DNA of 52,407 nt from a virus: UHGV virus genome UHGV-0113213, one strand, 5' to 3'. Position numbers and translations under genes: made by a program. The notes under the pieces are model-generated. The model saw nothing but the letters and a program-made list of their open reading frames with translations, searched no databases and was not told the origin of the DNA. Shown here piece by piece: positions 1 through 43,217 of this stretch (its first letter is position 1; each line of letters opens with the position of its first letter).

Positions 1-544
1 TATCCAGCGAATCATTAAAGGGTATCCACACATCCGGCAGCGGCTGTAAAACATACGCGTAAGGCTGCGCCGTCTGATTGGCGTATTCGTGGGCTTCGTC
101 TCTGTATGTCTTAGCTGAATCGGCTGCGCTTGTCGCTGTTGTTGCAGCGTTGGTTGCAGTGGTAGCTGATTGTGATGCTAATTTTGAGGCTGAAATCACA
201 TCTTTGTTGTCGCTAAAAAATTCAACTGCGTCCGCTATTTCTGATTCTTTGCCCTGATAGTAACGCAGTGTTTCGGCTACATCCTGAGCAAGACCATCCA
301 CAGAGATCGAATCTGAAAGCAGGATACTAAATTTAGTTCCAGCCGGAATAGCAGGACTTGCCGCAGGTGTTACTGATAAACTTGTTGCGCTTTTTACCTC
401 TGTGATTGAGAAAATCTGCACCGGATTGCTAATGGCAATAAGGGTGCAACCAACCCTGATCAGAGATAATGCGGCATTGAATTCAGTCCCCGTTCCGGTA
501 ACTGTTTTTCCGCTAACGGCTATCGTGCCTGTTGTGTAAATCAT
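1..544 (-). CDS. tail fibre protein, N-terminal part (ORF runs off the left edge)
   Basis: Own translation from ATG at 544: MIYTTGTIAVSGKTVTGTGTEFNAALSLIRVGC... It stays open to position 2. GGAG SD lies 8 nt upstream. Ala/Thr/Ser-rich shaft-like stretch (SQSATTATNAATTATSAADSAK). Next gene after J. Absent from the ORF track because it is truncated. Confidence 0.6.
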   Translation of the reverse strand, partial: MIYTTGTIAVSGKTVTGTGTEFNAALSLIRVGCTLIAISNPVQIFSITEVKSATSLSVTPAASPAIPAGTKFSILLSDSISVDGLAQDVAETLRYYQGKESEIADAVEFFSDNKDVISASKLASQSATTATNAATTATSAADSAKTYRDEAHEYANQTAQPYAYVLQPLPDVWIPFNDSLD

Positions 545-582
545 CGCAATGACTCCATTATGTTAATTAACCTGGTAATTTT

Positions 583-625
583 ACCATTTTGTGATCTGTG
601 TTACATTTCTGGCTTATACAAAATG
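583..625. promoter_or_regulatory. divergent intergenic control region: phage motif pair flanking a CRP-like palindrome
   Basis: CCATTTTGTGATC (583-595), TGTGATCTGTGTTACA (589-604, 12/16 to the CRP core) and TTATACAAAATGT (613-625). Lies between the tail fibre start (544, -) and the lipoprotein gene (722, +). Confidence 0.5.
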
Positions 626-721
626 TATTTATTGATTTATATCAATATCCGAAATGTTGTTTTGTCGGATATTTAAGCCACCGGATGAACCTGGCGAGCT
701 AACGAGAATGGGGATTCAAAA

Positions 722-970
722 ATGAAAAACATGCTCAAAGTGGTATTATTCGCTGCGGCTGTTGCTCTTACTGGTTGTGCTGTTGACAAAGATGCTGCAT
801 TGCACAACCTGCCAAATAGCGGAGTAATTCCTCAAGAAATTGTCTATGATGCTAATGGTCATCTTGTCTATGACACTGAAAAACTTCCATATACTGGTCA
901 ATGGTGTCATGAACTAGATCACAATATGCGCCGCATCGGTAGCCCGTCGAATTGTGTAGCTAACTACTAA
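722..970 (+). CDS. small lipoprotein (moron) between J and the tail fibre
   Basis: 82 aa. Signal peptide plus lipobox: MKNMLKVVLFAAAVALTG|C. Opposite strand to the tail genes, with its own terminator. Confidence 0.8.
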   Translation: MKNMLKVVLFAAAVALTGCAVDKDAALHNLPNSGVIPQEIVYDANGHLVYDTEKLPYTGQWCHELDHNMRRIGSPSNCVANY

Positions 971-973
971 AAG

Positions 974-1003
974 AAAACCCCGCGCAAAGCGGGGTTATTT
1001 TTA
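974..1003. terminator. bidirectional rho-independent terminator
   Basis: Stem CCCCGC(978-983)/GCGGGG(989-994), loop GCAAA. T-run follows on the plus strand (TTATTTTTA) and on the minus strand (TTTTCTTTT). Sits between convergent genes. Confidence 0.75.
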
Positions 1004-4000
1004 TGACCACGATCCAGAGCTTCTTGTGACAAGGACTAGGCCTGGTCTCCTTATTGCCGCTGATGATGTATTTGTGTAGTTTTCTGTAACAGTTACGGAA
1101 ACATGCTGAGATGTAATACCTGAAACACAATGAACGGCAACGTCTGACTTGTGGGGCGTTGATGCCGCCCTTTCTATGTCTATAGTCTTTGAATTTCCGT
1201 TAATGTTTATGGTTACGTTAATGCGTCCCGACTGGTTATATGTATAGTAAGCAAGGTTATAAGGTATCATTACATAAACCGTTTTCGATAAAGCAGATGA
1301 TGATGAATCCCAATAATTTTTGGTTACACTCCTGCTACCTGACCCTGATTGCGCAGGGAATGTTGCCTCTGGAATTACTGACATACTCGCAACGTCACCA
1401 ACAAAGGATGTAGCTTCTACAGTGCCTCTGAATTTACCGTCAGTCGCGTAAACAGTACCGTTAAACACACCAGAATTAGCGTATACCGTGCCGCGTACTG
1501 TAACGTTGTTAAATGTAGCCCAGCCATCTTTAACTATTGCCCAACCTTGATCGCTACCGTTCCAATTGTATGACGTTATGACATTGCCTATTTTTGCATT
1601 GTCGATTGAACCGTCTTTAATAAACGCTTCGCGCACATACATTGCGCCGTTAGTGACATAGAAAGGTGTCTGATATGTGCCGTTTGCGGCAGTCATTAAC
1701 ACGAATCGGTCAACAAGGAAAATGCACTGCGATTGAACATCAGTACCGCTGCCAGTGAGGCCAAGTGACATTCCTGTTGCGTATTTCATACCGTTGTTAT
1801 CAGTGGCAATCTTGATTGAATATGACGCATCAACGTTACCTTTAAAATCGGTTAACGCTTTCGATGTTGTCTCGATCGCTGTTGTGTTTCCGTTAACGGT
1901 CACTTTCAATTGATCAATTTTTGTCGATAATGCCTCATCTGCCGTTGACATGGCCTGCGACCATTCCGTGATGCTTGAGTTTACATCGTCGAAAGATGCC
2001 GATATTTGAACAAATTTTTCAGCACTTGATGCCTCGTGAGTTGCGAGCGCCGTTGATATATCTGTTATTTTTGCTGAAATGTTTTCATTAATATTGGCTT
2101 CAAGTGATGCTATAGCCTCCGCGCGGGCCTGTGTTTCGTCTGCTATTGCTGTGTCAATCCTTGCTATTTCCGCTTTTGTTTTTATCTGGCCTTTCCTGTA
2201 TTTTGCCTCAATAACGGTGCTCATCTTGCTTTGCGCTATTGAGTTGTTGATAAGTGCAATCGAGGCGTTTTGCAGACTTGCTTTCGCCTGTTCTATCTTG
2301 TCACTGTTTTTATCAACATCACTTTCAACAGAACCAAGCTCCGCACTGATGCCTGATATTGCCTGGGCGCGAGCGCTTGATTCGTCGGCGATAGCTTGAT
2401 CAAGGCGGCTAACACTGGCATTTGTGCTATTTTCAAGCGTTGTTAAATCAGCTTTAACATCTGTTATTGCGTCGCTTCTTGCCTGCGTTTCATCTGATAT
2501 TGCTTTATCGAGACGAGAAACGCTCGCGTCAGTTTTGTTTTCCAGGCTGCTGATACTGGCGTTAACGTTGCTTATAGCCTCCGTTCTAGCCTGCGTTTCG
2601 GTTGCGATTGCTTTGTCAACGCGGGCGATTTCCCCTTTGGTGCTGGAGTCCATTGCGTTCATTTCTGCTGTGATGGTTTCCAGTGATTCCGCTGTCGCTT
2701 TTTTCTCATCTGCGATAACGTTGTCGATACGGTCAATCTGTGCCTTTGTTTCGTTGCGACCTTTCTTATATTGAGCGGTAAGAGTAACCCGCGTGTTAGT
2801 TTGAGCAAGCGAGTTGTTGATCAGAGCAAGCGAAGCGTTTTGTAAACTTGCTTTTGTCTGTGCCAGTTCGTTATTAACGTTTTCGTTTGATACCTCTAAT
2901 GAGTCTATTCTTACCTCATGTTTGCCTATTCCATCGGCGTTTTCTTCGACTTTTTTATAAAGGTCTTCGGTGTCTTTTTTAAGTGTATCTGTATCAGCTT
3001 TAAGGCCATCTGTAGCTGTTTTAAGGTCGGCGGTTGCTGTTTTAAGGTCGGCGGTTGCGCTTTCTATAATATCAGTGCGATCACCAAGATCCTTAATATC
3101 ACTTACCAATTCCTTAAATTGCTCTGAGTTCATCACGTCTTTGGTGACATAGTCGCTGATTTCATCGAAGTTTTCAGTTGGCTTACCTGACGCCTCAACG
3201 AAGTCTGACACGCCAAAGGCATTGCGCGTGCGCACATAAACGTAATAAGTATGGCCCGTGTTCATTCCACCGAACGTCCACTGATACCCGCGCCCGGTAA
3301 ACTGCGCAGACGTGGTTATTTTTGCAGGATCTGTAATCTGGTTTTTCCCTGCATAGTAGAACTCATACGCTGTATCAGTTGTTAGCGTTGTTTTGCTTAT
3401 CGGGTACACTGTAGCCTGAAATACACCTGGAACCCAGTTAACGCCTATTGGCGAGGCTGGTGCACCAATAACAAGATCAACAATACTTTCAGCGCCCTTC
3501 ATGCCAGTATCATTTCTTCCGCGAACGCCTAACGAATACGCGCCAGCGTCGATGCCATAAAAATCATAACTGTATTTCGTTGTTTCGTAGCTTTTAACAA
3601 CCGCACCATCTGTGTTATATATGCGGATCTCAAAGGTCATGCGATGTGTTGTTGTCTGTGTCTCCCATGTTGCGCGGCATTGAACCGTTTCAGATCCAAT
3701 GTTTACCACCTTCAGATTTTCAATGCTCGGCACGCGGAAGTGATTAAGCGTGTCGTTGTTGATTTCAAATATAGCGCCTTCATCGACTACTGCTTGTTTG
3801 TTCGGGTCATGTTGCGCTGCTTCGATGGTGTACACGCTGTTGTTTTCAGTTTCTGCTACGCTGATGATTCGACATAAAACGGGTTTTGCAGATTCGGTTG
3901 ATACAGCAAAAACAGTACCGTTCCGAATCCATGCCGGGGCTGCTGCCAGTGTGATTTTGTTCCCGTTAACACCAGTGATCTGATGTTTTTTAAATTTGCC

Positions 4001-5578
4001 ATCGCCATCAAGTAAACTGATGGTGTCGCCTGCTGCAATGTATTCTGAATCGACTTTATCGACCGTTATCACTTTCCCATTGTTCGCCACGATACGACCG
4101 CCTAAACGCGCGCCTGCGCGGTTATTGTCGAGGATCTCGATTATATCCCCTGGCGTAAAGTGAATCGCATCACGGGCCATTTTAAACGTGAATTTTGACG
4201 GCTCGCGTTTTGCTGTTTCTATCAGCCATTTACCAGCGCGGTGCGCTTGCCCGCGTGAAGTGCACCCGAACGCCTCCAACGTGGTTTCGTTATAACCATC
4301 ACGGGCGATTAGCTCATCATCTGCCACATACTCTTTTGATTGCTCCCAGCCGTTTTCCGGGTCAGTCCATGATACAATCACGGCGTTGTAGCATTCTGCT
4401 CGGGCGATACTTGAACGAGTGAACGCACCATCAACGACGTTTGCGTTTGTGATGGTGGCGATCGGGTCTTGTGGCGCATCAATCATCACGGTAAGGCGTT
4501 GTCCGTCCCATAACGCGATGCCTCGGAACATCCCGGCGATATTGTCCAGTAAATCGCGGGCGCTCATTTGCTCTGTAATGTAAGCATTAAGCGTCATGCG
4601 AGGCTCAAGGCCACCGTAACCATCATCAACCAACTGGTCGCAGTATCGGGAGAGCGTATATAATGCGCCGTCGTCAACGTCAATATAGCCAGCATGGCGG
4701 GCAAGACCGAAACGCTCGTTTTTAACCAGGTAACGGAAGATCCACGCGGGGTTATTGGTGTACGCCTTCTTGAAGCCGCCAAGCCACAAACCGGAATAAG
4801 TGCGCGTTTCCGGGCTATAGTTATCAGGAACGTCAACAATCAGCCCGCGCAGGTGATAAGTGCGGGTAGGTGTATCAGTGTACTGATCATGATCAATAAC
4901 CGCGCCAGCTACAGCTGTGTGGGGATATGACAAATTATCGTCGATTATTTCGCTGTAACTACTCCATCTCGTATCATTCTGCAATAGATCGCTTGTGCTA
5001 TCGGCCGTTACACGGCGAACGCGAATATCAAACGGCTTTTCATCTGGTGCATTGATAATATGCGCTTCAAGATATTCTCCTCTGATCTTGCCGGGGCCTA
5101 TAGTGACATCTTTAACAAGCGTCCACGTAGAAGAAGATGAAGGCTTGACATCAATCATCATCATAACCGATGTGTTATGTTGATTGCTTTGCTCGTCAGA
5201 TTGTACAAGTGAATCGACGCCGATATTCAGGCGAACGCGCGTAACGTTAGGATCTGATACAGTCCTGATTATTGGGGTATCGTGTTTCACCTGAGCGTTA
5301 ACAATAACGGTTGATTCAATGGCGTTAAAACCGTTAATAGGTGATTGATCTAACGTGCCGTTACGCCACGCCACGCTAACACCAGGGACACTTGTATTGC
5401 CGTTCGCGTCTGTAACAGGTGTATCATTAAGCATCACGCTATTTAATGGCGCTTTTGTATTTACAGGTCCATAAATCGGACCTTCAGAAATAATATCAAG
5501 TACACGATAAAATTGTTTATGGTATAGATTATCGTTAATTAAAGTCGGTGTTTTTGCTTTACCGCCGCCGCTACTCAT
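1001..5578 (-). CDS. J: central tail fibre / host specificity protein J, with a long coiled-coil C-terminal extension
   Basis: 1525 aa. The N-terminus aligns by eye with lambda J (KDNL..Q...V.D.ISEGPI.GPV......V.LN.TPV.D..GNT). FN3-like segment, then about 400 aa of heptad-like repeats and a beta-rich tip. Position after I. Confidence 0.9.
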   Translation of the reverse strand: MSSGGGKAKTPTLINDNLYHKQFYRVLDIISEGPIYGPVNTKAPLNSVMLNDTPVTDANGNTSVPGVSVAWRNGTLDQSPINGFNAIESTVIVNAQVKHDTPIIRTVSDPNVTRVRLNIGVDSLVQSDEQSNQHNTSVMMMIDVKPSSSSTWTLVKDVTIGPGKIRGEYLEAHIINAPDEKPFDIRVRRVTADSTSDLLQNDTRWSSYSEIIDDNLSYPHTAVAGAVIDHDQYTDTPTRTYHLRGLIVDVPDNYSPETRTYSGLWLGGFKKAYTNNPAWIFRYLVKNERFGLARHAGYIDVDDGALYTLSRYCDQLVDDGYGGLEPRMTLNAYITEQMSARDLLDNIAGMFRGIALWDGQRLTVMIDAPQDPIATITNANVVDGAFTRSSIARAECYNAVIVSWTDPENGWEQSKEYVADDELIARDGYNETTLEAFGCTSRGQAHRAGKWLIETAKREPSKFTFKMARDAIHFTPGDIIEILDNNRAGARLGGRIVANNGKVITVDKVDSEYIAAGDTISLLDGDGKFKKHQITGVNGNKITLAAAPAWIRNGTVFAVSTESAKPVLCRIISVAETENNSVYTIEAAQHDPNKQAVVDEGAIFEINNDTLNHFRVPSIENLKVVNIGSETVQCRATWETQTTTHRMTFEIRIYNTDGAVVKSYETTKYSYDFYGIDAGAYSLGVRGRNDTGMKGAESIVDLVIGAPASPIGVNWVPGVFQATVYPISKTTLTTDTAYEFYYAGKNQITDPAKITTSAQFTGRGYQWTFGGMNTGHTYYVYVRTRNAFGVSDFVEASGKPTENFDEISDYVTKDVMNSEQFKELVSDIKDLGDRTDIIESATADLKTATADLKTATDGLKADTDTLKKDTEDLYKKVEENADGIGKHEVRIDSLEVSNENVNNELAQTKASLQNASLALINNSLAQTNTRVTLTAQYKKGRNETKAQIDRIDNVIADEKKATAESLETITAEMNAMDSSTKGEIARVDKAIATETQARTEAISNVNASISSLENKTDASVSRLDKAISDETQARSDAITDVKADLTTLENSTNASVSRLDQAIADESSARAQAISGISAELGSVESDVDKNSDKIEQAKASLQNASIALINNSIAQSKMSTVIEAKYRKGQIKTKAEIARIDTAIADETQARAEAIASLEANINENISAKITDISTALATHEASSAEKFVQISASFDDVNSSITEWSQAMSTADEALSTKIDQLKVTVNGNTTAIETTSKALTDFKGNVDASYSIKIATDNNGMKYATGMSLGLTGSGTDVQSQCIFLVDRFVLMTAANGTYQTPFYVTNGAMYVREAFIKDGSIDNAKIGNVITSYNWNGSDQGWAIVKDGWATFNNVTVRGTVYANSGVFNGTVYATDGKFRGTVEATSFVGDVASMSVIPEATFPAQSGSGSRSVTKNYWDSSSSALSKTVYVMIPYNLAYYTYNQSGRINVTININGNSKTIDIERAASTPHKSDVAVHCVSGITSQHVSVTVTENYTNTSSAAIRRPGLVLVTRSSGSWS

Positions 5579-7633: not shown

Positions 7634-7822
7634 ATGACTGAAAAGCTATGGAAGTTGACGGTATTCATGACAGACGGTAGGGAAAAGGTTATCGCCCTGT
7701 ATGACGACGAGGGTGAAGCATTGGTTGACGCGCTTTTACTTGCTGAGGATGACCGCCTTTTGGGATACCAGATCGAACCTGTCAAATATGAGGCTAACAA
7801 AAATGAAAAAATACAGTCTTGA
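7634..7822 (+). CDS. hypothetical small protein (paralog of the next ORF)
   Basis: 62 aa from the ATG at 7634, with GGAGG 6 nt upstream. Shares W/Y.L.V....G......L.D.E..AL...........PVKY.AN with 7803..8150. Confidence 0.6.
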   Translation: MTEKLWKLTVFMTDGREKVIALYDDEGEALVDALLLAEDDRLLGYQIEPVKYEANKNEKIQS

Positions 7823-8150
7823 TGTGTGGTTAAGTGGTAGCAAGGAGTGTTTCGGATTATTTGATAGCGAAGAAGTAGCCCTGGAAGAAGGCAGGATTCT
7901 TGAATGTAGTTTAGGCCATCCAGTGAAATATGCTGCTAATCCGGTACAGATAGTTGATGAGGTGGAAGATATGAACCCGAAAGATATTAATGGTAGCTTC
8001 ACTGCTTATTATGCAGATTCTATGGACCAGTCTTGCCCTGGTGAAATACACGCAAAAGGTTTCCCGGCTGACGATCCAGAAGCAAAACGCGAATACGAAA
8101 AAGCGGCGAAAGATTTCTGTATCGATAACCTTTCAGCATTCGATAAATAA
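7803..8150 (+). CDS. hypothetical protein (paralog of 7634..7822, with a C-terminal extension)
   Basis: 115 aa from the internal ATG at 7803 of track ORF 7701..8150. The start overlaps the previous ORF's end. Acidic. Confidence 0.6.
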   Translation: MKKYSLDVWLSGSKECFGLFDSEEVALEEGRILECSLGHPVKYAANPVQIVDEVEDMNPKDINGSFTAYYADSMDQSCPGEIHAKGFPADDPEAKREYEKAAKDFCIDNLSAFDK

Positions 8151-8159
8151 GGCGGCAAC

Positions 8160-8408
8160 ATGGGGCGGCGCAATCACGGTGATTATGTGTACACGTTGAA
8201 ACAGGCCGCCCGCCTCATCGGTTATCATGAACACGAATTTATTGATTTGCTGATTGAGCGCGGGATACTGTACCAGGTCTGTTTAACGCTGTACCCGAAA
8301 GCGAAATACCTACATGAAAAGTTATTCATCATCATGACGGATGAAAACCAGGTTAACCATTCATTCGTCACTGATAAGGGCGTTAATTATCTGCGTGATA
8401 ACTTATAG
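8160..8408 (+). CDS. KilAC-domain-only protein (antirepressor C-terminal domain-like)
   Basis: 82 aa. YTLKQAARLIG..EHEFIDLLIERGILY....LYPKAKYLHEKLF......VT.KGVNYL matches my recollection of the KilA-C pattern. No Bro-N/ANT/KilA-N domain is attached. Confidence 0.55.
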   Translation: MGRRNHGDYVYTLKQAARLIGYHEHEFIDLLIERGILYQVCLTLYPKAKYLHEKLFIIMTDENQVNHSFVTDKGVNYLRDNL

Positions 8409-43158: not shown

Positions 43159-43217
43159 GTCGCTACCCTATAACCTCAAAAAGTTTGATGCAAGTCACAA
43201 AACGTGTATTTTAAGCC

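Follow-up and report, generated by a model that had tools for sequence, protein, structure and literature searches.

The described parallels to the locus studied here are Llp acting on FhuA and Rtp45 acting on LptDE, both of which are periplasmic lipoproteins that disable outer-membrane receptors (PMC12685063). Llp of phage T5, which has been solved with FhuA (PMC9586334), acts from the periplasm to inactivate the receptor that T5 itself uses, and Rtp45 with LptDE has been determined by cryo-EM (PDB 9RPS; PMC12685063). The closest described protein is gp116 of phage mEp010, which was named Lpp010 and classified as a 'type-C Lpp' (Front Microbiol 2025, PMC11893012). Cloned on a plasmid under Ptac, Lpp010 excluded mEp010, mEp044, mEp554 and, unexpectedly, lambda, and it did not exclude mEp013 (PMC11893012). 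Tests on Keio mutants revealed a need for LamB in each of mEp010, mEp013, mEp044, and mEp554; lambda, unrelated in immunity, is LamB-dependent as well (PMC11893012). The published exclusion data for Lpp010 cover LamB- and OmpA-dependent phages only (PMC11893012).

The window, that is, the whole stretch of 52,407 nucleotides of virus genome UHGV-0113213 that was analyzed, carries a gene for a small lipoprotein. This gene is already known, being an orthologue of the protein characterized in 2025. Its product was 91.5% identical to mEp010 gp116 over 82/82 aa, 89-91.5% identical to the counterparts in mEp010, mEp013, mEp044, and mEp554, and 95% identical to a 'lipoprotein' of MagusPhagus. In the mature part, 59 of 64 residues (92%) were shared with Lpp010; the five changes (D24E, E39D, I40V, A44G, and N45S) were all conservative, and residues 46-82, the last 37, were identical. 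The plating test that the preliminary description had proposed for the window gene is thus already published for a 91.5%-identical orthologue, and LamB phages were excluded (PMC11893012).

The gene was located at 722..970 on the plus strand, stop included, and started with ATG. A Shine-Dalgarno sequence, GGGGA, was found at 710..714 (+), 7 nt before the ATG, and was replaced by GAGGA in relatives. The translation was MKNMLKVVLFAAAVALTGCAVDKDAALHNLPNSGVIPQEIVYDANGHLVYDTEKLPYTGQWCHELDHNMRRIGSPSNCVANY. The signal peptide M1-G18 (722..775, +) read MKNMLKVVLFAAAVALTG followed by C, with cleavage before Cys19, and ended in the lipobox L16-T17-G18-C19 (767-778, +). The 82-aa precursor and the clean lipobox (LTG/C, with Cys19 as its cysteine) were both present as described earlier. 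The mature lipoprotein, C19-Y82 (776..967, +), comprised 64 aa and 7.2 kDa and contained three Cys, one Trp, and four Tyr, which agreed with the earlier mention of cysteine and aromatic residues and adjusted its length from about 63 residues to 64. Alignments revealed three conserved motifs in the mature part, PNSGVIP, DTEKLP(Y/M)TGQWC, and RRIGSPSNC..(D/N)Y, and the lipobox Cys plus 18 further positions were invariant among 25 homologues. A likeness of the segment VYDANGHLVYDTE to YD/Rhs repeats was rejected, with no Pfam RHS match even at E<=10. Among seven orthologues, the variable sites at codon positions 1, 2, and 3 numbered 8, 3, and 29, a pattern of purifying selection acting on this frame and marking the ORF as a real gene. 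Cys62 and Cys78 form a probable disulfide pair, judging from their conservation and the periplasmic location. The +2 rule of Lol sorting is established. Sorting of the lipoprotein to the outer membrane by the Lol system is predicted because residue +2 is Ala and Asp never occurs at this position across the family.

The lipoprotein gene lay antisense between the genes for the host-specificity protein J and the side tail fibre, as the preliminary description had placed it. The J gene (1001..5578, minus strand, 1525 aa) was its convergent partner, with a gap of 30 nt between the lipoprotein gene and the J stop, and the last ~145 aa of J (1004..1438, -) formed the presumed receptor-binding tip. 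The left neighbor (1..543, -) was the N-terminal part of a gene for a side tail fibre, truncated where the window begins, and matched MagusPhagus CDS0019, 'tail fiber protein'. The first 6 kb of the window showed 83-88% identity to mEp013, mEp010, mEp554, mEp044, mEp515, mEp021, and MagusPhagus, and the window represents a coliphage or prophage of the mEpimmI type (mEp021 group). The identical lipoprotein was found in viral contigs of ~52-55 kb in IMG/VR. The gene was detected in 10-13 of 5426 complete Escherichia coli genomes, always on the chromosome and annotated as 'hypothetical protein', and is rare prophage cargo.

A scan and a fold identified an intrinsic terminator at 976..996, with a stem of eight pairs (six of them G-C) and T-runs flanking it on both strands. 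Its folding energy was -17.7 kcal/mol (z = -5.2), a value equalled by none of 200 shuffles, and a terminator was annotated at the same position in mEp010, mEp013, mEp044, and mEp554. The lipoprotein gene had been credited with a terminator of its own; the terminator does exist, but it is bidirectional and common to the lipoprotein gene (+) and J (-).

Upstream of the gene, the intergenic leader at 544..721 (+) was conserved, with 93% column identity in six phages, and presumably holds the promoter. A strict consensus scan found no promoter upstream of the lipoprotein gene. The best sigma-70 candidate in a PWM scan, at 580..607 (+), consisted of a -35 element TTTACC, a 16-nt spacer, and an extended -10 element TGtTACATT. 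It scored 11.2, a score of 10 being attained at about 0.07% of positions in the window, and was kept only partly in relatives; we regard it, by inference only, as a candidate promoter. A CRP-like palindrome at 590-605 was considered as a regulatory site and set aside, as its right half was degraded in four of six relatives. A 38-aa ORF also fell within the leader (560-676, +), and MagusPhagus and the mEp phages have counterparts of it labelled 'hypothetical protein'. This ORF is unlikely to be a gene: the region is a 93%-conserved non-coding leader that in mEp013 contains a 1-nt deletion, and the annotated counterparts begin at differing sites between phages. In E. coli M15, PGAP joins the counterpart of this ORF to cor as an N-terminal extension.

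Palindromes of the form TGTGA-N6-TCACA (at most one mismatch) occurred at window positions 590, 7523, 28659, 31685, 34923, 38326, 39933, 43184, and 46618, that is, nine copies against 1.4 expected, and none of 100 shuffles reached nine. The majority appeared intergenic when compared with the list of ORFs of at least 90 aa; one copy lay 5' of the lipoprotein gene, one lay 5' of a second antisense cassette, and the copy at 43184 was in an apparent divergent intergenic space of the immunity region. These palindromes may serve as CRP sites or as operators for a phage regulator. Another motif, CCATTTYGTRA, was present in six copies against 0.31 expected (584, 9202 on the minus strand, 28644, 34947, 43232, and 47213), and four of the six (584, 28644, 34947, and 43232) were within ~50 nt of such a palindrome. 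The second antisense cassette (7634-8408, +) was embedded in the tail region, flanked by L and the next tail gene, and comprised three small ORFs matching phrog_29559, phrog_38567, and phrog_5689. Its 5' side contained TGTGATCTGCGTCACG and a CAAAATG element, arranged as upstream of the lipoprotein gene.

The window lipoprotein matched phrog_12984 ('lipoprotein') with an E-value of 2.4e-27, its residues 7-82 aligning to positions 5-77 of the 77-position profile. Pfam, NCBIfam, and PADLOC yielded no family for it. With tblastn, the family was detected in 44 phage records, which spanned the mEpimmI group, the Queuovirinae (Seuratvirus and Nonagvirus, with CAjan, Seurat, 9g, slur01, and others), Dhillonvirus (EP23, PNS1, HH3, and others), and one phage each of Salmonella, Cronobacter, and Enterobacter. 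Searched with a profile, 1.84 billion cluster representatives yielded only four matching clusters, indicating that the family is narrow and self-contained. One of the four, a 4467-aa CshA/SdrD-repeat adhesin with nine short repeat matches, was regarded as a repeat artefact. Profile-based searching of PDB chains yielded chance matches only, and a scan of GTDB species representatives found no relatives. Structure prediction by AF2 produced low-quality models for both the full precursor (25 sequences, pLDDT 57.6) and the mature part (23 sequences, pLDDT 59.6); a Foldseek search of the PDB from such a model gave nothing below E = 2 and, at this model quality, is uninformative on a shared fold and no evidence against one. 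AF3 also mis-predicts Rtp45, according to the LptDE study (PMC12685063). Two IMG/VR loci (L046, 3020-3238; L047, 3667-3822) encoded a 72-aa variant of the family that had no canonical lipobox and read MKKLIAVVAILLCTNAFA followed by NT... at the corresponding site. This variant was located among small ORFs of the same strand, with no J gene nearby. It is possibly cleaved by signal peptidase I, and may represent a soluble form in the periplasm, set in another phage context.

The preliminary description had proposed a Cor/Llp-type exclusion factor while noting no similarity to Llp or Cor that could be vouched for. The latter observation was borne out: hhalign on the mature parts gave a probability of 0.1% each for Cor and Llp, 2% for Rtp45, and 0.2% for Lpp021. 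The higher values with full-length sequences (85% for Rtp45 and 92% for Cor) were driven by the signal peptides and disappeared once these were removed, and were not accepted as kinship. The NCBIfam profile for Cor, NF047972, did not match the window lipoprotein at E<=10; its cut-off is 31 bits, and the positive control, T1 Cor, scored 55.8 bits. The Cor family phrog_1119 gave only E 0.16, over signal-peptide residues 4-22. The proposal itself has to be divided, since the exclusion function stands, by way of Lpp010, whereas membership of the family does not, with no sequence homology to Cor, Llp, or Rtp45. The lipoprotein would be a functional analogue of Cor and Llp, and it belongs to neither family.

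The BASEL collection, in which receptors have been assigned, includes 12 small siphoviruses of the same genera as the phages carrying the lipoprotein (PMC8594841, S5 Table). By tblastn, a homologue was present in all four that use LamB (Bas21-24), in none of the three that use FhuA (Bas15-17), and in none of the five that use LptD (Bas14, Bas18, Bas19, Bas20, and Bas25). All eight phages with no homologue were verified as present in the searched database. LamB use and the presence of the lipoprotein were thus associated among these 12 phages (Fisher p = 0.002), and the receptor tied to the lipoprotein is likely LamB, not FhuA. The behavior of mEp013 is informative here. Since this phage infects Lpp010-expressing cells via LamB, LamB is not removed from them and remains present and usable; its escape also indicates that exclusion by Lpp010 depends on the J variant. 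Lpp010 would accordingly alter a feature on which the majority of J tips, though not every one, rely.

The gene arrangement was conserved together with the lipoprotein. In 29 of 31 IMG/VR loci, a J gene running convergently stopped 28-34 nt from the end of the lipoprotein gene. The convergent order was shared by mEp010, mEp013, mEp044, mEp554, KurtStettler, and EP23, and was also found in Seuratvirus, Nonagvirus, and Dhillonvirus phages and in Salmonella prophages. In KurtStettler, which uses LamB, a J-like protein of 987 aa was followed by the convergent lipoprotein. Its congener VogelGryff, which uses LptD, lacked such a lipoprotein; behind its J of 879 aa stood a distinct antisense gene (321 aa), in the position that BASEL assigns to receptor-binding proteins (PMC8594841). 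The J proteins linked to the lipoprotein had C-terminal tips (last ~130 aa) that constituted one superfamily with two subclasses, which joined at E<=1e-3. Subclass 1 contained mEp010, mEp013, and KurtStettler, all proven LamB users. Subclass 2 contained the window phage, MagusPhagus, and EP23, and the window tip was 28-33% identical to the LamB-proven tips of subclass 1. Altogether, 34 of the 35 lipoprotein-linked J proteins fell in this superfamily, which was not found in the J proteins of Cor- or Rtp45-type phages (T1, Rtp, VogelGryff, mEp021, and E. coli M15) or of lambda. The single exception was a Salmonella prophage (L016/L017, 388-4230), whose J matched neither subclass over its last 130 aa. 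Its member of the lipoprotein family was 80 aa long, with 55% identity.

In sister phages, the same slot held other genes. The mEpimmI-like prophage of E. coli M15 (NZ_CP185789, L014 5500-10910) had J, two small genes, and then cor in this slot. Its leader was 97% identical to positions 545-646 of the window, and the homology broke at ~646. The break was just past an inverted repeat, TTGATTTATATCAA, at window positions 632-645, and this repeat delimits a swappable receptor/exclusion cassette on its left side. In mEp021 (MH706966, L002 1762-2915), the slot was occupied by homologues of Rtp44 and Rtp45: gp80 ('virion structural protein', 311 aa) showed 64% identity to Rtp44 over 311/311 aa (E 3e-150), and gp81 ('Lpp021', a type-A lipoprotein) showed 49% identity to Rtp45 (E 4e-24). 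BASEL regards Rtp44 as the bona fide protein by which phage RTP binds its receptor LptD. These comparisons point to the essential LptD as a candidate receptor of mEp021 and mEp515, for which leaky OmpA dependence has been published (PMC11893012). On the evidence of these sequences, the window gene is one allele of a swappable module that combines a receptor-binding tip with the matching exclusion lipoprotein. The slot between J and the tail fibre accepts interchangeable cassettes of a LamB type, an FhuA/Cor type, and an LptD/Rtp45 type, which in mEpimmI phages stand behind a common leader.

From these data, we consider it probable that the product of the window gene is a small outer-membrane lipoprotein that brings about receptor-specific superinfection exclusion in line with the specificity of the phage's own tail tip. 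By sequence rules, the precursor would be exported, lipidated at Cys19, and cut by signal peptidase II, and Lol would deliver the lipoprotein, with Ala at +2, to the periplasmic leaflet of the outer membrane. The cell would then become refractory to LamB-requiring phages. This step has been shown for Lpp010, and we infer it for the window allele because 59 of 64 residues of the mature part are identical. By analogy, the ~7-kDa mature protein most likely binds LamB directly from the periplasmic side, and, with LamB so altered, most LamB-specific tips would fail to bind productively or to eject DNA. Comparative genomics showed that the lipoprotein gene travels as a cassette with the receptor-binding tip of J, and that its place is taken in sister phages by Cor (FhuA type) or by a pair resembling Rtp44 and Rtp45 (LptD type). 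The benefit would be that the lysogen or infected cell is guarded from competing LamB phages and that fewer progeny are lost on cell debris.

Direct binding to LamB is the part of this proposal that has the most serious competitor. LamB has no plug, no TonB coupling, and a narrow pore, and the mechanisms of Llp and Rtp45 therefore do not transfer directly; that the pore is too narrow for an Rtp45-like hairpin is established structural knowledge. Exclusion might instead proceed with no binding to LamB, either by a block at a step after adsorption (insertion of the tail tip or tape measure, periplasmic transit, or DNA ejection) or through other envelope proteins. Action through other envelope proteins has been argued for Cor. 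LamB is evidently exposed and functional in Lpp010-expressing cells, as mEp013 still infects them via LamB, and interference with DNA ejection is listed as an option in the mEpimmI study (PMC11893012). However, what the excluded phages, the unrelated lambda among them, have in common is their receptor rather than their lineage. Across at least three phage lineages, the lipoprotein keeps strictly to LamB users and to one J-tip superfamily, and both structurally solved analogues bind the receptor itself (PMC12685063). We thus consider exclusion with no LamB binding to be unlikely, and direct binding is preferred.

Even less probable, in our opinion, is that the lipoprotein and the tip of the window phage target a receptor other than LamB. 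The window tip belongs to subclass 2 and is only 28-33% identical to the LamB-proven tips, and the Salmonella prophage pairs the lipoprotein with an unrelated tip. Against this, the mature lipoprotein is 92% identical to Lpp010 and its C-terminal 37 aa are the same, the two tip subclasses unite at E<=1e-3, and both accompany the same lipoprotein within the Seuratvirus-like and mEpimmI phages. The size and lipobox would also suit other small phage lipoproteins, such as an Rz1-type outer-membrane spanin acting in lysis or a Bor-like moron for host fitness, but this explanation is very improbable. No Bor or spanin match was found in Pfam, PHROG, or NCBIfam, even at E<=10; the gene is between J and the tail fibre, not in a lysis cassette, with no adjacent or overlapping plus-strand partner or Rz-like gene; and its orthologue Lpp010 has a direct exclusion phenotype (PMC11893012).

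The family might provide the first exclusion lipoprotein to disable a classical plug-less trimeric porin, LamB, from the periplasm, with a fold unrelated to those of Llp, Cor, and Rtp45 and a different mechanism; we put this forward tentatively, leaning somewhat against it. The mechanism would then be neither allostery mediated by a plug nor a hairpin passing through a wide lumen. The loops or turns of LamB might be re-shaped such that most J tips are defeated with the porin still present; this would fit the escape of mEp013, and maltodextrin uptake might change. How a periplasmic lipoprotein protects LamB is of some structural interest, and of some practical use where phage cocktails depend on LamB. 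The pairing of receptor and exclusion in one slot helps to predict receptors from sequence and to engineer host range. The gene, labelled 'hypothetical protein' or just 'lipoprotein' in RefSeq and GenBank, can be annotated as a LamB-associated superinfection-exclusion lipoprotein, orthologue of Lpp010.

Compared with Lpp010, the window protein has the same 82-aa length, the same lipobox, and the same slot convergent with J, and the two share the terminator and the phage group. They differ in the five conservative substitutions, all in the N-terminal half of the mature window protein, and in the partner J tip, which in the window is of the EP23/MagusPhagus type instead of the mEp010/KurtStettler type. 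Cor (phi80, N15, HK022, T1, and mEp167) is likewise a small outer-membrane lipoprotein with receptor-specific exclusion of heterologous phages. In T1 and the E. coli M15 prophage, cor is antisense and lies a few genes beyond J, and in the latter it occupies the identical slot behind the same leader. However, Cor is tied to FhuA and the window family to LamB, and their sequence relationship is confined to the signal peptide.

T5 Llp resembles the window protein as a lipoprotein of ~7 kDa whose gene adjoins that of the receptor-binding protein on the opposite strand. Llp, however, acts by reverse allostery via the plug and loops of FhuA, and LamB has no plug. Rtp45 of phage Rtp is also a small exclusion lipoprotein convergent with J, and its homologue mEp021 gp81 (49% identity) fills the same slot in sister phages. 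In Rtp, the receptor-binding function is encoded by the separate gene Rtp44, whereas in the window the receptor-binding domain is the C-terminus of J. The Rtp45 hairpin threads the wide lumen of LptD, which is implausible for the narrow pore of LamB. Nevertheless, Rtp45 demonstrates that exclusion lipoproteins can target outer-membrane proteins that are not TonB-dependent.
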